DNA from: a bacterium
GTDB taxonomy: Bacteria; Patescibacteriota; Minisyncoccia; Minisyncoccales; UBA10102
DNA: 64,000 bases
Direction of reading: 5' to 3'
NCBI GenBank assembly: GCA_030647485.1
Contig: JAUSJT010000004.1
Location: 109,088-173,087 of the forward strand
A model generated the notes under the pieces. That model searched no databases. It was not told the origin of the DNA and was given only the letters and a program-made list of their open reading frames with translations. Positions 1,126-59,273 of the stretch are shown in pieces. The translations under genes were made by a program, and so were the position numbers. Each line of letters starts with the position of its first letter. The first letter of the stretch is position 1.

Positions 1126-1838
1126 AAAACTCATATACCGTCATTCATCTTGGGGGATCCATTGTGGTCCCCCATATTTCAGACCAAGGGGGAATGAATA
1201 TTCCCTTTTTAAAGAAGTTTCGAGTATTTCTGCAAAAAGAGTTAAAGAAAGGAAGGCGTTTTCTCATTGTTATTGGAGGTGGAAAGACCGCCAGGGCATA
1301 TCAGAAATCAGCATCTAAAGTAGTGAAGATAAAAGATTATGATTTAGATTGGATTGGTATTCACGCAACGAGGTTAAATGCGCATCTCTTGCGCACTATT
1401 TTTGAAAAGGAAGCATATCCTGTTGTTATTGATCACGATCCCGAACAGGAAGAAGTGCAGATGTTAAAGTCTTCAAATAAAAAGCTTTTCTTTGCTTCAG
1501 GATGGAGACCTGGATGGTCAACCGATTATATTGCAGTGGAATTGGCAAGGAAATTTGGAGTACAGGAGGTTATCATCGCAAAAGATACTCCCTTTGTGTA
1601 TGACAAGGACCCTGGAAAATATGCTGACGCAAAGCCGATGCATGCACTATCTTGGAAGGAATACAAAAAGTTTGTCCCCAAAACATGGAGCCCTGGGTTG
1701 TCTTCTCCGGTGGATCCTGTCGCAACCCGCCTTGCAGAAAAGGTGGGCATTACCGCCAAGATTTTACAGGGAACAAATCTTCACAATTTCCAGAAGGCAA
1801 TCCAAGGGAAGTCCTTTGAGGGAACTACAATATCCTGA
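1122..1838 (+). CDS. amino-acid-kinase-fold protein, archaeal-type UMP kinase-like
   Basis: ATG 1122 overlaps the upstream stop (ATGA); MKNSYTVIHLGGSIVV...LIVIGGGKTARAYQ motifs; the ORF-track start at 1032 is an upstream extension. Confidence 0.6.
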   Translation: MKNSYTVIHLGGSIVVPHISDQGGMNIPFLKKFRVFLQKELKKGRRFLIVIGGGKTARAYQKSASKVVKIKDYDLDWIGIHATRLNAHLLRTIFEKEAYPVVIDHDPEQEEVQMLKSSNKKLFFASGWRPGWSTDYIAVELARKFGVQEVIIAKDTPFVYDKDPGKYADAKPMHALSWKEYKKFVPKTWSPGLSSPVDPVATRLAEKVGITAKILQGTNLHNFQKAIQGKSFEGTTIS

Positions 1839-3791: not shown

Positions 3792-4010
3792 ATGACATAT
3801 AAATCCACCGCAGTTATTAGAAAAGAAGGCAAATGGTTTATTGCCCGTTCTTTGGAGTTGGGTGTAACCAGTCAGGGCAGAACCATTGAAGAGGCAAAGA
3901 ACAATCTTATAGAGGCAGTTGAGTTATACCTTGAAGATATGCCAAAGAGTAGAAGTGTCCTTACTCGAGAAGCACCCTTGGTTACTTCTATAGAAGTTGG
4001 CCGTGGCTAA
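3792..4010 (+). CDS. hicB: HicB-family antitoxin
   Basis: 72 aa; ...VIRKEGKWFIARSLELGVTSQGRTIEEAKNNLIEAVELYLED, a typical HicB N-terminal fold signature. Confidence 0.75.
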   Translation: MTYKSTAVIRKEGKWFIARSLELGVTSQGRTIEEAKNNLIEAVELYLEDMPKSRSVLTREAPLVTSIEVGRG

Positions 4011-4227
4011 AACGTTCTCTGGAAAAGAAGTGATGAAAGTTTTAATCCGTGAATTCGGATTTTCTTTTGTTTCCCAGAAAGGAAGCCATGCAAAATTGAA
4101 AAAGAAAGTACGAGGGAGAATCGTTACGACGATTGTGCCTATACATAGAGAACTGGCGCATGGGACGCTTCTCGGCGCTTTGGAGCTTGCTGGAATAGAA
4201 GAGCAGGATTTCAGGGAAGCAGTTTAA
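3997..4227 (+). CDS. hicA: HicA-family mRNA interferase toxin
   Basis: 76 aa; GKEVMKVLIREFGFSFVSQKGSHAKL (YcfA/HicA GSH motif); TTG start overlaps the hicB stop (GTG 4003 is an alternative). Confidence 0.75.
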   Translation: MAVAKTFSGKEVMKVLIREFGFSFVSQKGSHAKLKKKVRGRIVTTIVPIHRELAHGTLLGALELAGIEEQDFREAV

Positions 4228-4244
4228 CTCAAAGAATCATCACG

Positions 4245-5309
4245 ATGGCATCATTATCCGTTGGCATTGTGGGCTTGCCTAATGTGGGGAAATCAACCCT
4301 GTTTCAGGCGCTCACGAAAAAGCCGGTGAATATTGCAAATTATCCTTTCTGTACTATTGATCCTAACGTAGGGGTTGTTCAGGTTCCGGATGAACGCGTA
4401 CAGAAGCTTGCTGATTTATTTAAATCAAAAAAAGTAATTCCCGCGGTAGTAGAATTTGTGGATATTGCAGGGTTAGTAAAGGGTGCTTCTAAGGGTGAGG
4501 GTTTGGGGAATCAGTTTCTTTCACATATCCGTGAGACTGACGCTATCTGCCAGGTAGTGCGCTGTTTTGAAGATCCAGACATCATTCATGTGGAGCAATC
4601 TGTGGATCCTGTACGAGACATTGATACGGTAAATACCGAACTCTTGTTAAAAGACTTGGAAACCGTTGAAAAGCGCTTGGGAACCATGGAAAAAGAAGTG
4701 AAGGGAGGGGATAAAGAAGCAATAATCAACTATCCAATCTTGCAGGAGTTCAAAATCACCCTTGAAAGGGGAGTGTCTGCGTTTTTGTATCAAAAAGAAC
4801 ATCCCGAAGCAAAAGCTGTGTTCAAAGAACTTCAGCTTTTGTCTGCAAAGCCTGTTATATATCTTTGCAATACGGACAAAAAAGAAATCTCGGAAGTTCT
4901 TAAAAAGAAGATTGGAGAGCTACACTCTTCTTTTGTTATCTTGAGCGCGAGAGAAGAATTGGATATTGTAAGTCTTTCAGAGCAAGAGGTGTTGGAGCTT
5001 GGCTTGAATTCTAGACTCCCCGCTTTGATTCAGAAAGCGTATGAGATTTTGAATTTGATTACTTTTTTTACAACTGGTCTTGACGAAACAAGGGCATGGA
5101 CGATTGAAAAGGGGATGACAGCGCCCCAGGCAGGAGGGGTTATCCATAGCGACTTTGAAAAGACATTTATCCGCGCAGAAGTCATACCGTGGAACGTACT
5201 ATTGGAAGTGGGAGGGTATACCCAGGCGTACGAAAAAGGTCAGGTCCGTACCGAGGGGAAAGAATACGTGGTGCAAGACGGGGATGTCATTGAAATCAAG
5301 CACGGCTAA
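4245..5309 (+). CDS. ychF: redox-regulated ribosome-binding ATPase YchF
   Basis: 354 aa; GIVGLPNVGKST P-loop, C-terminal TGS-like region ...YVVQDGDVIEIKH. Confidence 0.95.
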   Translation: MASLSVGIVGLPNVGKSTLFQALTKKPVNIANYPFCTIDPNVGVVQVPDERVQKLADLFKSKKVIPAVVEFVDIAGLVKGASKGEGLGNQFLSHIRETDAICQVVRCFEDPDIIHVEQSVDPVRDIDTVNTELLLKDLETVEKRLGTMEKEVKGGDKEAIINYPILQEFKITLERGVSAFLYQKEHPEAKAVFKELQLLSAKPVIYLCNTDKKEISEVLKKKIGELHSSFVILSAREELDIVSLSEQEVLELGLNSRLPALIQKAYEILNLITFFTTGLDETRAWTIEKGMTAPQAGGVIHSDFEKTFIRAEVIPWNVLLEVGGYTQAYEKGQVRTEGKEYVVQDGDVIEIKHG

Positions 5310-8114: not shown

Positions 8115-8125
8115 CTCTTTCTATG

Positions 8126-8277
8126 CCCCGTACGAAATTTACACAGGCATAGTCACGCGAAGCGCGAGGGGCGAATAGCCCCATCCTTTCATGGGCGCAG
8201 CGCTTCGCCAATGACAGCATGCACCTATTCGGTGCGCGCACTGCGCAATGTAATAATATGGTAAATTTCTAACGGGG
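8126..8277 (+). mobile_element. 152-bp TIR element, copy A (non-coding relative of the GIY-YIG element)
   Basis: CCCCGTACGAAATTTAC...GTAAATTTCTAACGGGG termini, flanked by TATG on both sides; near-identical to 38754-38905 and 40729-40880. Confidence 0.75.
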
Positions 8278-8278
8278 T

Positions 8279-9022
8279 ATGCATATATCGCTACGGCCAG
8301 AAATTATTGGAACACTCTTTGGCATTCCCATTACCAACAGCTTGATTCTTTCTCTTATAACCGCTTTTCTTCTTGTTGGAGGCGGTTTTTTGCTTGCGCG
8401 TTCTTTGCGGATGATCCCAGGAAAAGCGCAAAATGCCATTGAAACGCTCCTGGAAGGAATCCTCGCCTTCATGGGCCAGACATTAGGGAATAAAGAGCAA
8501 GCGAAGAAATTCTTTCCTCTTGTAGCCACCATATTCTTGTTTATCCTGTTTAATAATTGGATCGGGGTGCTTCCTGGAACCGGGTCTCTGGGATTTTTTG
8601 AAGAAAACCAAGGAGTAAGAACATTTGTTCCTTTGTTTCGTTCTGCGAACAGCGATCTCAATACCACGTTTGCCCTAGCTTTAATCTCCATGGCCGCCAT
8701 TCAGTGGTATGGAATACGAAAGCTGGGGTTCTTGCGCCATATCTCCAAGTTTCTCGTGTTCACCAAGGGCCCGATTGATTTCTTCGTGGGGATATTGGAG
8801 TTGATAGGAGAGTTCGCAAAGATTCTGTCATTCTCGTTTAGGCTATTTGGCAACATATTCGCAGGAGAGGTGCTCCTCATTATTATCATGGCCTTAGTGC
8901 CGGTCATAGTGCCCCTTCCTTTTATCATGCTGGAATTCTTTGTAGGCTTTATTCAGGCCTTGGTTTTTGCTATGCTTACGTTGATATTCTTGAAAATAGC
9001 AACAGCTGAGGTCGAGCATTAG
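8279..9022 (+). CDS. atpB: F0F1 ATP synthase subunit a
   Basis: 247 aa polytopic; ...FSFRLFGNIFAGEVLL... signature. Confidence 0.9.
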   Translation: MHISLRPEIIGTLFGIPITNSLILSLITAFLLVGGGFLLARSLRMIPGKAQNAIETLLEGILAFMGQTLGNKEQAKKFFPLVATIFLFILFNNWIGVLPGTGSLGFFEENQGVRTFVPLFRSANSDLNTTFALALISMAAIQWYGIRKLGFLRHISKFLVFTKGPIDFFVGILELIGEFAKILSFSFRLFGNIFAGEVLLIIIMALVPVIVPLPFIMLEFFVGFIQALVFAMLTLIFLKIATAEVEH

Positions 9023-12622: not shown

Positions 12623-14117
<1,495 letters not shown>

Positions 14118-34145: not shown

Positions 34146-34193
34146 TGTAACTTAGCTTAGTTAAGTTATCCACACCTTAGTGAGATTAAGGAG

Positions 34194-34229
34194 CCAAAGA
34201 ACCGCCACGGAGGCGGTTTTTGGTATAGT
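34194..34229 (+). repeat. 36-bp direct repeat, left copy (contains the rpsJ terminator hairpin)
   Basis: CCAAAGAACCGCCACGGAGGCGGTTTTTGGTATAGT; 34/36 identical to 35330-35365; AACCGCC...GGCGGTT + T-run. Confidence 0.8.
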
Positions 34230-35286: not shown

Positions 35287-35329
35287 AAATAGGGTTAGTC
35301 TTATTCATGCCTTGGCGAGACCCAAGAAT

Positions 35330-35365
35330 CCAAAGAACCGCCACGGAGGCGGTTTTGGGTAGAGT
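35330..35365 (+). repeat. 36-bp direct repeat, right copy (terminator hairpin)
   Basis: CCAAAGAACCGCCACGGAGGCGGTTTTGGGTAGAGT; weaker similarity extends about 25 bp upstream in both copies. Confidence 0.8.
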
Positions 35366-38348: not shown

Positions 38349-38747
38349 ATGACACGTTCACTTAAAAAAGGCCCATTTATTGACGAGAATCTTTTAAAGA
38401 AGATTCAAGGAACAAAACCCTTAGGGAAAGCCCCGGTAAATACCTGGTCTCGAAGGGCGACCATCACCCCTGAAATGGTGGGGTTTACCTTTGGAGTATA
38501 CAATGGAAAACAATTTATTCCAGTGCTGGTGGCAGAAGATATGGTGGGGCATAAGCTAGGAGAATTTTCTCCTACCACAAAGTTTGTACGGCATGGAGGA
38601 AGAATGCAGAAAGACATAGAACAGGGAGCAACAGCAGCTGCGGCTCCAGGAGCCGTTAGCGCACCCGCCTCCGCTGGACCTGCCCGTCCGGCAGGCGGGG
38701 CTACGGCGGGCAAGGCAGGGAAAACAGAGAAACCAACAGCGAAATAG
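38349..38747 (+). CDS. rpsS: 30S ribosomal protein S19 with about 40-aa Ala/Gly/Pro-rich C-terminal extension
   Basis: [12 protein letters not shown]...[25 protein letters not shown]...; tail ...[36 protein letters not shown]. Confidence 0.95.
38664..38714 (+). repeat. 51-nt GC-rich palindromic segment inside the rpsS tail (in frame)
   Basis: CCCGCCTCCGCTG + 23 nt (CCTGCC...GGCAGG) + GCTACGGCGGGCAAG; flanking 13-mer and 15-mer identical to atpD 12824-12853. Confidence 0.6.
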
Positions 38748-38753
38748 CCTATG

Positions 38754-38905
38754 CCCCGTATGAAATTTACAAAGGTCTATACACGCGAAGCGCGAGGGGC
38801 GAATAGCCCCATCCTTTCATGGGCGCAGCGCTTCGCCAATGACAGCATGCACCTATTCGGTGCGCGCGCTGCGCTTTATAATAATATGGTAAATTTCTAA
38901 CGGGG
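38754..38905 (+). mobile_element. 152-bp TIR element, copy B (rpsS-rplV junction)
   Basis: Flanked by TATG 38750-38753 and 38906-38909; termini CCCCGTATGAAATTTAC / GTAAATTTCTAACGGGG. Confidence 0.75.
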
Positions 38906-38906
38906 T

Positions 38907-39419
38907 ATGCAAACATTGATGAGGTTACAACGAATACGAATTGCGCCCAGAAAGATGAGAATGGTTATTGATCTGGTGCGAGGAAAGAAAGTTGCTCTTG
39001 CAAGGGATGTGTTGCGTTTTAAGACAAACAAGGGAGCTAGGATTCTTTCAAAGCTTCTAGACTCTGCGATTGCGACAGCCAAGTCATTGGGACAGGGAGA
39101 CGAGTCAAATCTTATGGTATTGAAAATAGCAGTGGACGAGGGTCCAAAGTTAAAACGCTGGAGAGCTCGGGCTAAAGGATCAGCCTATGAAATCCAAAAG
39201 AAAGTTTCTCACATTACGCTTATCTTAGACGAGGTGAAGGGTGCAAAATCCGCATCAGTATCCAGGAAAGAGATAAAAACAGGACAAGAAGCTGTGAAGA
39301 AAGATCAAGTTGCGATAAAGACAGAAAAGCCTAAGTTTAAGGCTGTATCTAGCGAGCTCAAGACTTCAAGGACTGAAAAAGGAGTTCAGAGATTCTTTAG
39401 GAAATCAGGAGAAAAGTAG
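38907..39419 (+). CDS. rplV: 50S ribosomal protein L22 with Lys-rich C-terminal extension
   Basis: 170 aa; ...RIAPRKMRMVIDLVRGKKVALARDVLRF..., ...RWRARAKGSAYEIQKKVSHITLIL. Confidence 0.93.
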   Translation: MQTLMRLQRIRIAPRKMRMVIDLVRGKKVALARDVLRFKTNKGARILSKLLDSAIATAKSLGQGDESNLMVLKIAVDEGPKLKRWRARAKGSAYEIQKKVSHITLILDEVKGAKSASVSRKEIKTGQEAVKKDQVAIKTEKPKFKAVSSELKTSRTEKGVQRFFRKSGEK

Positions 39420-40558: not shown

Positions 40559-40738
40559 ATGAACATCGCTGAACTGCGGCAAAAATCAAAAGGGGAGTTG
40601 CAGGAGTTCCTTCAAGGGCAGAAAGAAACACTGCGTCAACTTAGGTTTGATCTTGCTGCGGGAAAAGTAAAAAACGTGCGTCAGATAAGACAATTGAAAA
40701 AAACAATAGCACAAATACTAACCGTATGCCCCGTATGA
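40559..40738 (+). CDS. rpmC: 50S ribosomal protein L29 (stop codon supplied by the inserted element)
   Basis: 59 aa MNIAELRQKSKGELQEFLQGQKETLRQLRFDLAAGKVKNVRQIRQLKKTIAQILTVCPV*; below the ORF-track cutoff. Confidence 0.88.
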   Translation: MNIAELRQKSKGELQEFLQGQKETLRQLRFDLAAGKVKNVRQIRQLKKTIAQILTVCPV

Positions 40739-40880
40739 AATTTACAAAGGTCTATACACGCGAAGCGCGAGTGGCGAATAGCCACATCCATACAGGGGCG
40801 CAGCGCTTCGCCAATGACAGTATGCACCTATTCGGTGCGCGCACTGCGCTATGTAATAATATGGTAAATTTCTAACGGGG
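40729..40880 (+). mobile_element. 152-bp TIR element, copy C (rpmC-rpsQ junction)
   Basis: Flanked by TATG 40725-40728 and 40881-40884; carries the compensatory GTGGC...GCCAC variant of the GGGGC...GCCCC hairpin. Confidence 0.75.
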
Positions 40881-40881
40881 T

Positions 40882-41115
40882 ATGCCCAAAAAACAATTAA
40901 CTGGCATTGTGGTGTCAGACAAAATGCAAAAGACCATTGTGGTAGAGGTTGAACAATGGCATGTGAACTCAAAGTACAAGAGGAGATTTCGCATGCACAA
41001 AAAGTACAAAGCCCATGATGAGAAAGGAGAATACAAAATAGGAGACACGGTTGTTATTGAGGAATCAGTCCCTATTTCAAAAGATAAGAAGTGGAGAGTT
41101 ATTTCCAAGGCGTAA
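40882..41115 (+). CDS. rpsQ: 30S ribosomal protein S17
   Basis: 77 aa; ...LTGIVVSDKMQKTIVVEVE...HKKYKAHDE...GDTVVIEESVPISK. Confidence 0.95.
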   Translation: MPKKQLTGIVVSDKMQKTIVVEVEQWHVNSKYKRRFRMHKKYKAHDEKGEYKIGDTVVIEESVPISKDKKWRVISKA

Positions 41116-48645: not shown

Positions 48646-48734
48646 ACGATCACATGGTTTCCCCCGACCCCCCTCTTTTCACAACCCTTGGTTTTGAATA
48701 ATTTCCTACACGGGGGAAACCACAAATTTATTAC
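48646..48734 (-). repeat. structured repeat family 2, copy 3 (inverted orientation, tpiA 3' flank)
   Basis: Reverse complement reads GTAATAAATTTGTGGTTTCCCCCGTGTAGGAAATTATTCAAAACCAAGGGTTGTGAAAAGAGGGGGGTCGGGGGAAACCATGTGATCGT. Confidence 0.75.
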
Positions 48735-52734: not shown

Positions 52735-53811
52735 ATGCTGCTTGTTGATTTTGGAGAAAGCACCTGCAAGTTCGCTCTTGTGAAAGAATATGAAAAGAGC
52801 CTCGAGGTGCAAGAATGGGGGATAGAGGATATCCGCTCTTTAGAGTATGCAGCAGAGCATATCCTTGAGAGGATGAAAGGCGTGCATGGAGATATGGAGC
52901 CCGTCTTTGTAAGCTTGCCCGCCACCCTATGGAGATCGCGTGTATTGTATGAGGGAATAGAGAGGAAGAACGCGGCCTTGCGCATTGACTCTGCAGAAAA
53001 AGAAACCATCCTCGAAGGTCTTTTTGCGAGGACGCGCTCATCGCTCAAGGAACAGGTGCAAGATTCCTCTGGAATCCTCGCAGAGGACGTAAGTATCCAA
53101 AAGTTGCAGATCCTTAAGTACACGATTGATGGATACCATGTGCAAGACATTTTGGGCTTTCCGGGAACACACCTGGATGTTCAGATTATGGCAGTGTTTG
53201 CTCTTGTAAAGCATCTCCCTATCGTGGATAATATAATACAGAGGTTCTCTAGTATCTCTTCCCCCCGTATTGTTCATCTTGCAGAAGCCCTTGAGGGCTT
53301 TTCTCAAACGAGACCGCAGGACGCAATATACATTGATATGGGGGATGCATTCACCCGGATTATCGCGACGCAGCAAAAACGTGTTGCATTCGTTGACGAA
53401 GTTTCTCGCGGAGGCAGGGATTTCACGCTCTATCTTCAAGAGACCCTTTCTCTGGGAGAGAATACTGCAAAAGATTTTAAAGAACGGTATGCCTCAGGCG
53501 ACTTCTCGTTTCCCTTGAGGGAAGCGGTAAAGGAAGGATTCCTAGCCATAGCAGAAGATCTTGCACGTCTTGTATGTAAGAGTTTGCGCAGTACCAGGGT
53601 ATCTCTTCCTTCTTCTATTTTCCTTTTTGGAGAAGCCAGCAAGCTTCCAGAAATTGAAAAAGCCTTTCTAGGCAACATCTTTGAAGGATTGCCATTCCAC
53701 GAGAAGCCCCGCATCTCGTTCTTGCTGCCAAAGGATCTCTGGACCTTGGAGTTCCCCGGCAAAACAAATCCCGTCTTCACTCCATTATTTTTCTTGCCTT
53801 ATGCCCCGTAA
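52735..53811 (+). CDS. divergent FtsA/PilM-like actin-fold ATPase (stop codon supplied by the GIY-YIG element TIR)
   Basis: 358 aa; phosphate-1-like LLVDFGESTCKF, phosphate-2-like IYIDMGDAFTRI, SRGGRDFT, IFLFGEASKLPEI. Confidence 0.5.
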   Translation: MLLVDFGESTCKFALVKEYEKSLEVQEWGIEDIRSLEYAAEHILERMKGVHGDMEPVFVSLPATLWRSRVLYEGIERKNAALRIDSAEKETILEGLFARTRSSLKEQVQDSSGILAEDVSIQKLQILKYTIDGYHVQDILGFPGTHLDVQIMAVFALVKHLPIVDNIIQRFSSISSPRIVHLAEALEGFSQTRPQDAIYIDMGDAFTRIIATQQKRVAFVDEVSRGGRDFTLYLQETLSLGENTAKDFKERYASGDFSFPLREAVKEGFLAIAEDLARLVCKSLRSTRVSLPSSIFLFGEASKLPEIEKAFLGNIFEGLPFHEKPRISFLLPKDLWTLEFPGKTNPVFTPLFFLPYAP

Positions 53812-54088
53812 CATTACATCGGTAGTGTTCTTCTACGTCTATGTACTTTTGAGTTTGAAAGATGGAAACCATTATGTAGGATATACTACTGACTTGAGAA
53901 AGAGAATAGAAGAACACAAGAAGGGGCTGGTGTTCTCGACAAAAACACGAAGGCCCCTCACACTTATCTATTTTGAGGGTTGTCGAAATGAACAAGATGC
54001 TAAACAGCGCGAGCGATACCTCAAGATGACTATTGGTCGCAGATGGCTTGGCACAAGATTGAGGAATTTTAATAAAAAACTGATGTAA
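53801..54088 (+). CDS. stand-alone GIY-YIG nuclease-domain protein (95 aa)
   Basis: MPRNITSVVFFYVYVLLSLKDGNHYVGYTTDLRKRIEEHKKG...ERYLK; ATG is the left TATG copy and TAA lies inside the right TIR; the ORF-track start at 53681 is an extension into the upstream gene. Confidence 0.8.
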   Translation: MPRNITSVVFFYVYVLLSLKDGNHYVGYTTDLRKRIEEHKKGLVFSTKTRRPLTLIYFEGCRNEQDAKQRERYLKMTIGRRWLGTRLRNFNKKLM

Positions 54089-54098
54089 TGTTACGGGG
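53804..54098 (+). mobile_element. 295-bp GIY-YIG element with perfect 17-bp TIRs and TATG target duplication
   Basis: CCCCGTAACATTACATC (53804-53820) / GATGTAATGTTACGGGG (54082-54098); TATG at 53800-53803 and 54099-54102. Confidence 0.7.
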
Positions 54099-54099
54099 T

Positions 54100-55356
54100 A
54101 TGCAAAAAAAGAAAGTTCGTGATATTCTTCCTCCCAGGCGTGTCAAGGCGCACGAGCCTGAAAAAGCAACTCCATCTTCTCTCGTGCAGCGTTCCCCACA
54201 AAGAACCCCTAGGAGAATGCTGTTTTTTCTACTCTTTGTCGTGCTCATAGGAGGAATTACAGGGGTGCTTAGCCTCCACTTCTTTTTTGCCAAGGTCTGG
54301 ATTATCGTCCACCCGTACACAAGAGAGGTAACTGCCAAAGCGTCTATGACTGCCCGTGCAGGAATTGAGGGAACAGATATTGAAAAGAGTATCTCCGCAT
54401 TGATTATTAATGAAGAGAAGTCATTGACCAGACTATTTCCTGCGACAGGGATATCTACCGAGGAAGGAAGAGCTCGGGGCACCATACGGGTATTCAACGG
54501 ATTCTCCACGTTTCCTCAAAAATTAGTCGCGCAGACACGATTTCTTTCAGAAGACGGGAAGCTATTCCGTTCTCCAGGAGCCGTGGTGGTACCCGCAGGG
54601 CGTATGGAAGGAGGTAGCATTATTGCGGGATTCCTTGATATTGAGGTTGTAGCCGCAGAATCCAAAGAGGAATACAATATTGGACCTTCTAATTTTTCCC
54701 TTCCTGGACTCTTTGGGAATCCCGCATATACGACCATAACTGGAAAATCATCTGAACCTATGACTGGCGGGTCAAAAACGGAAGTTTCCGTTGTAACAGA
54801 ATCTGATTTGAATGCTGCACGGGATGCTCTTATGGCAGAGTTGCAGCAAGACGTGCGAGAATCCCTGGAGGGCAAGGTGCCAGAGGGTATGATATTGCTT
54901 TCTGACGCAGTAGACCTCCGGGTTGTTCAGGCGTCTTCACCTATCAAGGCAGCAGCTCCGTTAGACAATTTTAATTTCTCTGTGAAAGTCCAGGGAGTAG
55001 CCATAGTTTTTTCCAAGGCCGATGTTGAGAACGCAGCCAAAACGCTTCTTGCCAACCTTACAGAAGGGGGAGAAAAAATAGCCGAACGGGCCGATTCAAT
55101 AGAGTACGAAAACGTGGAAATGAATATGAGCGCCCAGAGCCTTTCTTTTGACATGAGAGCGTCCACGAGGACCTACAAAGAGATTGACCCTGTTGAATTC
55201 AAGGCGCGCTTAGCGGGGATATCAAAGGATGAGGCGGCTTTAGCGCTTTCCTTAAATCCCAGCCTGCAAAAAGCAGAGATTCTTTTATTTCCCTTCTGGC
55301 TTACATATCTCCCCCAAGACCCCAATAAGGTGGAGGTTAGCATAGTTATTGACTAG
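54100..55356 (+). CDS. hypothetical membrane-anchored protein
   Basis: ATG of the right TATG copy (MQKKKVRD...); one N-terminal TM ([20 protein letters not shown]); no family recognised. Confidence 0.6.
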
Positions 55357-59208: not shown

Positions 59209-59273
59209 AGAGGGGGTCGGGGAGATTGGGTATCTCCCCGTGTAGGAAATTATTCAAAACCGAGGGTTTTGAA
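59209..59273 (+). repeat. structured repeat family 2, copy 4 (permuted: 3' half precedes 5' half)
   Basis: AGAGGGGGTCGGGGA + gattgggtatc + TCCCCGTGTAGGAAATTATTCAAAACCGAGGGTTTTGAA. Confidence 0.65.

Follow-up and report, generated by a model that had tools for sequence, protein, structure and literature searches.

A MITE on the rpsQ start codon of a Patescibacterial ribosomal operon, and its relatives that encode a GIY-YIG nuclease

Introduction

Ribosomal protein genes in compact bacterial operons leave little room for foreign sequence, and yet a 152-nt stretch, rich in predicted hairpins, runs from the end of rpmC, the gene for L29, to the working start of rpsQ in the DNA considered here. 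This DNA, a 64-kb stretch of a Patescibacteriota contig (JAUSJT010000004.1) that we call the window, holds three copies of the same sequence. How could such a sequence enter the junction of two ribosomal genes with neither being broken, and what keeps its hairpins intact? An earlier note on the window had claimed that the third copy, copy C, rewrites the C-terminus of L29, and that two coordinated substitutions in one hairpin betray selection on its stem. Its account of the element stands; what it did not see is that the wider family has members coding for a GIY-YIG nuclease, one of them in the same window.

A MITE in the rpmC/rpsQ overlap

Copy C is 152 nt long, occupies positions 40729-40880, and is bounded by 17-bp TIRs, with TATG duplicated on both sides. 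The junction is laid out as follows.

40725-40728, + strand: left TATG target duplication, whose ATG at 40726 was the start of rpsQ before the insertion and retains its native context
40729-40745, + strand: left TIR of copy C, CCCCGTATGAAATTTAC, which supplies the last codon and the stop of L29
40746-40863, + strand: structured interior of copy C (118 nt)
40864-40880, + strand: right TIR of copy C, GTAAATTTCTAACGGGG, which holds the TAA (40873-40875) closing a 49-codon frame
40881-40884, + strand: right TATG, whose ATG at 40882 is the working start of rpsQ (40882-41115)
40726-40875, + strand: open frame of 49 codons that begins at the left ATG, closes with the right-TIR TAA, and stops 6 nt short of the start of rpsQ

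The two TIRs are complementary at 15 of 17 positions and differ at a central TA/AT dinucleotide. The 3' end of rpmC (40559-40738) reads CTA ACC GTA TGC CCC GTA TGA, or ...LTVCPV*, such that the last codon, GTA, spans the boundary between TATG and TIR and the stop codon (TGA, 40736-40738) lies inside the left TIR. Removal of copy C and one TATG in silico yields an L29 ending ...VCPKNN* that overlaps the rpsQ ATG at 40882. The ancestral terminus predicted in this way by the earlier note is the one seen in relatives whose L29 is 86-91% identical: these proteins are 61 aa long and end ...VCPKNN or ...CPKDN. The predicted duplication and overlapping junction are likewise borne out by DNA, since in two relatives (L140 and L142) the rpmC/rpsQ junction is ...ATACTAACCGTATGCCCAAAAAACAATTAACTGG, corresponding to the two flanks in the window joined via a single TATG, with the genes overlapping; copy C is therefore an insertion with a 4-bp target duplication.

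Relatives with L29 proteins ending CPV... do exist (P0046, P0052, and P0055), as would be awkward if they lacked an element. The CPV-ending loci that were read, those of P0046 (L143) and P0052 (L146), both carry one, in each case an 82-nt superfamily member distinct from copy C and sitting at the identical TATG, so these proteins do not refute the insertion reading. The TATG site at rpmC/rpsQ has been hit repeatedly by superfamily elements, in L143, in L146, and in the window.

Copy C is short and without a transposase gene, has TIRs, a target duplication, and a matching empty site, and belongs to a family found at several unrelated loci; it is a MITE inserted in the rpmC/rpsQ overlap. Neither gene is broken by it: L29 takes its new final codon and its stop from the left TIR, and the right TATG regenerates the rpsQ ATG. 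Copies B and C, and L001 in the other orientation, keep the 49-codon frame open, but a TAG interrupts it in copy A; the frame also matches no protein family, and on these two grounds we rejected it as a real protein.

The two further copies in the window are these.

8126-8277, + strand: MITE copy A, directly upstream of the gene for ATP synthase subunit a (ATG 8279), with TATG at 8122-8125 and 8278-8281
38754-38905, + strand: MITE copy B, between rpsS (stop 38745-38747) and rplV (ATG 38907), with TATG at 38750-38753 and 38906-38909

The three copies are 93-94% identical (blastn against copy B), and in each the right-hand ATG is the start of the next gene, be it that of ATP synthase subunit a, rplV, or rpsQ. 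Elsewhere, copies of the family came from a metagenome scan (L001, L003, and L005) and from a TIR scan of genome contigs (L041), with L002 and L004 forming a more distant subfamily. The 152-nt family also occurs in reverse orientation to its host gene (L001) and in intergenic sites. A scan for more hairpins with a GAATA loop gave no further family members.

A TIR superfamily in Patescibacteria

The TIR of copy C (CCCCGTTAGAAATTTAC) is widespread in Patescibacteria, where it bounds elements of 46-303 nt with unrelated interiors. A scan of genome contigs for single TIRs gave 117 loci, many but not all of them in Patescibacteria MAGs, and 37 paired elements; an earlier scan of the genome contigs, which demanded both TIRs 103-133 nt apart, had found none, most relatives being shorter. 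Matches on viral contigs were lone and unpaired only and were taken as chance. Exact 4-bp direct repeats flank 35 of the 50 elements examined, with a perfect duplication absent in the other 15; the duplications seen across the superfamily are TGAA/TTCA, TAAA/TTTA, TATG, ATGA, and TGGA/TCCA.

Presence and absence can be compared directly at a second ribosomal junction. A polymorphic MITE of ~150 nt lies between rplN and rplX in L147 (6930-7090) and is absent from L146 (6920-6940). Its TIR is TCCCGATAGTGTC and its duplication TGAA, and the end of the element, ...GGGA, rebuilds an ATG when followed by TGAA. The filled allele of L147 also has an extra TCATGAA alongside, resembling an excision footprint.

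The cargo of such ends can be more than a hairpin. In L023 (1143-1277) a whole tRNA-Glu(CTC) gene (1173-1247, minus strand) lies inside a superfamily TIR pair, which indicates that these ends can carry RNA genes. No autonomous element of 0.8-4 kb with these TIRs was found: the long pairs (L051, L089, and L091) are each two separate MITEs, and TIR pairs 1.2-3.2 kb apart are the ends of separate MITEs only. Two elements, in L111 (879-979) and L124 (4430-4564), are flanked by TTCA to the left and TGAA to the right, with no direct repeat; L111 has long opposite-strand ORFs with GTG starts at both element ends, and L124 has one such ORF only.

Insertion on start codons

The regenerated start codon of rpsQ is an instance of a general pattern. 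Elements with TATG, ATGA, TGAA, or TGGA duplications abut the start of an ORF of at least 50 codons in 20 of 20 cases, adjacency being defined as an element offset of -1, 0, or +1 from the ORF start, against a lenient null for the start-codon 4-mers of at most 12.5%. Superfamily members with ATG-compatible duplications are, in other words, always on start codons. The start is regenerated in one of two ways, either as the ATG contained in TATG or ATGA, or by the last G or A of the TIR, which makes GTG or ATG with the following TGAA. The TATG targets read TATGC in eight of ten cases, a bias that points to a short target motif in addition to purifying selection. A preference for short motifs (TATGC, ATGAA), together with purifying selection in gene-dense genomes, could then give rise to the start-codon pattern.

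Coding relatives with a GIY-YIG nuclease

A small ORF fills two 303-nt elements of the superfamily (L067 and L069), and tblastn with that ORF leads back to a homologue in the window.

53804-54098, + strand: 295-bp coding element with perfect 17-bp TIRs (CCCCGTAACATTACATC) and TATG at 53800-53803 and 54099-54102

From 53800 to 54102 the order is TATG, CCCCGTAACATTACATC, the GIY-YIG ORF, GATGTAATGTTACGGGG, and TATG. The ORF runs from an ATG at 53801 to a TAA at 54086-54088 and encodes 95 aa, with the GIY-YIG core beginning at a GTG at 53825. As with copy C, the neighbours are fitted around the insertion: the left TIR contains the stop of the upstream gene, and the right TATG contains the ATG (54100) of the next one. 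The upstream FtsA-like protein (52735-53811) ends ...LPYAP* in the left TIR, and its relatives end ...LPYANKESS. The empty site for this element is found in L155, and at the same site in L156 (1680-1710) a remnant, CCCCGTAGTAAAAA, stands alone between two TATGs, being a decayed or imprecisely excised element.

Nine independent GIY-YIG genes are bounded by TIRs in this manner (the window, L067/L069, L079, L130, L132, L137, L149, L152, and L154). The coding elements span ~292-303 bp, and their sole gene is a GIY-YIG nuclease of 87-95 aa. Six further homologues with contigs are all bounded by TIRs of 17-20 bp, with exact TATG or ATGA repeats in five; in L130 the left duplication is degenerate, TATAG versus TATG. 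The link with the MITE is closest in L137 and L067/L069, whose GIY-YIG genes are bounded by the MITE's own TIR (CCCCGTTAGAAATTT). In the 64-kb window no GIY-YIG gene has the MITE's exact TIR, and the TIR of the window's coding element shares 9 of 17 positions with it. The gene of L079 (reverse strand of 3900-4450) has a different TIR again, CCCCACACCA(T)AACGAGCTT, and across the set the TIR sequence varies together with the GIY-YIG protein. About 130 nt from that gene, L079 also holds a 32-nt "element" that consists of two TIRs back to back (CCCCGTTAGAAATTTAC/AAATTTCTAACAGGG).

The GIY-YIG ORF is always co-oriented with the downstream host gene, and in the TATG-type junctions that were read (the window, L132, and L149) the left host ATG is in frame, through the TIR, with the nuclease. 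This arrangement accounts for the TIR-encoded peptide MP[SRG]xxT[SP], which stands at the start, or just after a short leader, in 22 of 40 homologues. The right TIR contains the nuclease stop codon in three of the elements, those of L137, L149, and the window.

The protein itself (53801-54088) is assigned by its sequence to the GIY-YIG nuclease superfamily, as a UPF0213/Slx1-like member with intact predicted catalytic residues. It matches the Pfam GIY-YIG family PF01541 with E = 7e-16, and the residues conserved in the nuclease are Y, Y-x-G, R, H, E, and N. The AlphaFold2 model, of pLDDT 90.5, shows the alpha/beta fold of the superfamily and has as its closest matches UPF0213 BH0048 (PDB 1zg2) and the nuclease domains of Slx1, with I-TevI and UvrC less similar. 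The family is a large one, with 931 cluster representatives at E <= 1e-10.

What moves the elements

Given that the nuclease is the sole gene of the coding elements and varies with their ends, the simplest proposal is that it cleaves both ends and targets, and that it would in this way mobilize coding elements and MITEs alike. Slx1-like enzymes cut branched or folded DNA, and the TIRs, together with a MITE that is quasi-palindromic (the whole 152-nt element is ~70% identical to its own reverse complement), could present such structures. A folded MITE that served as a nuclease substrate would, moreover, give a reason for its conserved hairpins.

In its fullest form this proposal holds that the Slx1/UPF0213-like nuclease of 87-95 residues, with no other enzyme, drives a new class of DNA transposon, at ~295 bp the smallest autonomous one known. 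Such a transposon would insert on start codons, borrow the ribosome-binding site and ATG of its host gene, and hand a start codon back, and the 152-nt copies would be its non-autonomous derivatives, with hairpins kept since the nuclease, or the mRNA, needs a folded strand. We advance this full version tentatively and give it slightly less than even credence. To our knowledge, no GIY-YIG enzyme transposes on its own. The 87-aa catalytic domain has no obvious DNA-binding module, which counts against the nuclease as mobilizer, and each exact GIY-YIG protein was found at one locus only, so that multi-copy behavior is documented for the MITEs alone.

The most durable alternative is that these are ordinary MITEs moved by an unseen conventional transposase encoded elsewhere, with the GIY-YIG genes as passengers or as independent selfish genes. 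Duplications of 4 bp and short TIRs, as found here, are typical of DDE elements, transposition by a GIY-YIG enzyme alone is undocumented, and the TIR pair around a whole tRNA-Glu gene in L023 makes the capture of cargo possible. In Tsy transposons, furthermore, the encoded GIY-YIG nuclease is a dispensable accessory, and tyrosine recombinases carry out transposition (PMC10293859). Against this reading, nine independent GIY-YIG genes fit TIR pairs precisely, with ORF starts and stops that overlap the TIRs, and a different protein goes with a different TIR sequence. Nor was a transposase found between any of the TIR pairs examined, in which GIY-YIG was the only gene. We therefore regard a hidden transposase as unlikely, if the strongest of the alternatives.

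Hairpins in the interior of the MITE

Three features of the predicted fold matter for the question of selection.

40771-40785, + strand: hairpin H1, GTGGC-GAATA-GCCAC, with a T:A pair (40772 with 40784) that is G:C in copies A and B
40823-40837, + strand: hairpin H3, GCACC-TATTC-GGTGC, whose loop is complementary to that of H1
40760-40768 with 40803-40811, + strand: predicted 9-bp helix of GCGAAGCGC with GCGCTTCGC, within the interior of copy C

As RNA, the interior of copy C has a minimum free energy of -69.5 kcal/mol (z = -5.6). H1 reads GGGGC-GAATA-GCCCC in copies A and B and GTGGC-GAATA-GCCAC in copy C, and two of the six substitutions private to copy C form its T:A pair. By chance, 0.002 such pairs would be expected in this hairpin and 0.02 anywhere among the 43 predicted pairs; the double change reported in the earlier note is real and exceeds chance.

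Copies outside the window extend the pattern. The second pair of H1, G:C in copies A and B, is T:A in copy C, L001, L003, and L041 and C:G in L005, and the third pair is T:A in L001, giving stems of GTTGC/GCAAC, GTGGC/GCCAC, and GCGGC/GCCGC in the related copies; L041 has a long insertion in the H1 loop and retains the stem. Double changes thus affect two of the five pairs of H1, and an uncompensated change is present in no copy. None of 500 shuffles reaches the observed covariation score, a statistic that ignores relatedness. In the family alignment, which holds 6-7 sequences only, 7 of 52 paired interior columns are variable versus 42 of 67 unpaired ones (Fisher p = 4e-8), and most stem pairs of the 152-nt family never vary. 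The contention that the stem is constrained gains support both from this lower variability and from the compensated changes in independent copies.

H3 is invariant in the 152-nt family and reads GGCC-TATTC-GGCC in the L002 subfamily. A single long hairpin joining H1 and H3 was rejected because the stems of H1 vary while H3 does not, and no covariation between the H1 and H3 loops, as for a kissing interaction, was detected, L001 and L003 altering the H1 loop only. More distantly, a module of ~70 nt that resembles a cloverleaf, built of an outer stem plus three hairpins, is common to L002 (1520-1600), of the L002/L004 subfamily, and L098 (2760-2830, reverse strand), although their TIR families differ; it has four compensated pairs and the conserved loops CGAATAR and YATTC. 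This module has no Rfam family match and no tRNA call, L002 having been compared with Rfam at both gathering and permissive thresholds. Each half of the MITE has one copy of the motif GCGAAGC, which forms a highly stable mini-hairpin in DNA; the two are on opposite strands (40760-40766, +; 40805-40811, -), at the same positions in copies A and B. The motif, in either half, is well kept: it is invariant on the left arm in all seven family copies and on the right arm in six, L041 being the exception.

We infer that what maintains the interior hairpins is selection on a single strand in its folded form, whether of mobilizing DNA or of operon mRNA. All changes in H1 are strictly Watson-Crick and accordingly fit RNA and single-stranded DNA, and either strand, equally well. 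MITEs with unrelated interiors exist in the superfamily, so such hairpins are not strictly needed for mobility.

Paired substitutions can also arise without selection on the stem, through hairpin-templated mutation, in which template switching within a quasi-palindrome at replication copies one arm from the other. Quasi-palindrome correction is an established mutational route, and the strictly Watson-Crick changes, the lack of G:U intermediates in H1, and the element's resemblance to its own reverse complement all suit it. Templated mutation alone, however, fails to explain why stems are less variable than unpaired columns, and the L002/L098 module keeps both loops and stems across different TIR families. 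We judge it improbable that this process produced the pattern on its own.

More doubtful still is a role mainly at the RNA level, in which the element would act as a folded spacer within the operon transcript, to be processed or excised, or as a regulator of the cistron that follows. It draws on the position of copy C in a transcribed essential operon, on the strength of the RNA folds (z-scores of about -5.6 to -6.0) with the downstream AUG paired in the predicted structure, and on a few terminal U:G pairs that fit the + strand only. Against it, the family lies opposite to its host gene in L001 and in intergenic sites as well, and presence or absence with target duplication is the mark of DNA mobility. 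Rfam 15 gives no match in the window at the gathering threshold, and chance-level matches only under permissive settings (E up to 10); promoter- and terminator-like matches in the operon segment show no excess over shuffles. A related notion is that ribosomes starting at the left ATG may read through the element, melt its structure, and restart at the regenerated ATG; since a TAG closes the frame in copy A, such a translational bridge is not general and is at most a partial explanation.

That the element is neutral repeated junk and its compensatory pair a coincidence is disfavored to the point of being barely credible, for while the window has three copies only and most stem pairs never vary, the chance expectation is small, no shuffle matches the covariation score, and independent compensated changes recur in L001, L005, L002, and L098.

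Copy C is, then, a MITE of the superfamily described here, and the best explanation of the whole is probably that a GIY-YIG nuclease serves as mobilizer and that the hairpins are under selection.

Relation to known systems

As a MITE, copy C is of a known kind; its family appears to be undescribed, is linked to GIY-YIG genes, and targets and rebuilds start codons. In literature searches we found no description of MITEs in Patescibacteria, none of GIY-YIG elements with TIRs, and none of UPF0213 or Slx1 within a TIR-bounded element with target duplications.

Among the closest parallels are the Correia elements of Neisseria, the ERIC elements of enterobacteria, and the palindromic elements of Rickettsia, which are bacterial MITEs co-transcribed with host genes. 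Like the MITE here, they are short, non-coding, and multicopy, with TIRs and with stable hairpins in host transcripts, and those of Rickettsia are tolerated inside coding sequences. The present elements differ in their TIR, in a 4-bp duplication (TATG, TGAA, ATGA) rather than TA, in insertion on start codons with regeneration, and in having coding relatives with a GIY-YIG gene and no known transposase. A Correia- or IS630-type MITE was rejected on the duplication, TA being expected and 4 bp found (TATG, TGAA, ATGA, TAAA, and others). Tn3-derived TIMEs have TIRs of ~38 bp and a 5-bp duplication; with TIRs of 17-20 bp, and a 4-bp duplication in 35 of 50 elements, this assignment too was set aside.

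Mobility by way of folded single-strand hairpins with covarying stems is a feature of IS200/IS605 derivatives (PATEs) and of REP/RAYT systems. These have subterminal hairpins but no TIRs and no duplication and depend on a Y1 HUH transposase, whereas the MITE here has both TIRs and duplications; a PATE or REP was rejected on this basis, and the TIRs examined neither enclose nor adjoin a Y1 gene.

On the side of the protein, the closest in sequence and fold are UPF0213 (BH0048, PDB 1zg2; EF2693, PDB 1ywl) and Slx1. UPF0213 proteins are about the size of the partner protein, conserve the GIY, YIG, Arg, and Glu residues, and have no assigned role, while Slx1 is a repair enzyme that depends on Slx4. 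Free-standing GIY-YIG homing endonuclease genes, such as the seg genes of phage T4 and the I-TevI family, resemble the coding elements in being wedged between host genes, in borrowing expression signals, and in recurring at the same site. Homing genes, by contrast, which spread when an empty allele is cleaved and the gene copied in during repair, have no TIRs or duplications, encode long DNA-binding domains (~250 aa), and are not known to be accompanied by MITEs at unrelated loci; with TIRs and duplications bounding all nine GIY-YIG genes, a homing gene was rejected, the same-site recurrence being the homing-like trait. Tsy transposons share with the coding elements a GIY-YIG nuclease within a bacterial transposon (PMC10293859), with the difference that the nuclease here is the only gene.

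Implications

Should the nuclease prove to move these elements, it would represent a new catalytic class beside the DDE, HUH, serine, and tyrosine enzymes of bacterial transposons, and the UPF0213 family, with all of its 931 cluster representatives, would gain a function. It would also illustrate how selfish DNA can persist in the essential, packed operons of reduced genomes, namely by rebuilding the start codons on which it lands. For those who work with Patescibacteria bins, the insertions alter protein ends, as in L29 and the FtsA-like protein, and the spacing of genes, and annotation pipelines take the TIR-encoded peptides for genuine N- or C-termini.

Other repeats in the window

A second repeat family, GTTTCCCCCGTGTAGGAAATTATTCAAAACCGAGGGTTTTGAAAAGAGGGGGGTCGGGGGAAAC, is present at 12648-12715 (+) and 48655-48722 (-), with a partial copy at 59236-59273. 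It has 10-bp inverted ends and also begins CCCCGT, and two of its three copies lie just upstream of an ATG. Lastly, a terminator-like hairpin, AAGGAGCCAAAGAACCGCCACGGAGGCGGTTTTTGG, occurs as two 42-nt copies (34188-34229 and 35324-35365) that are 90% identical and 1.1 kb apart.
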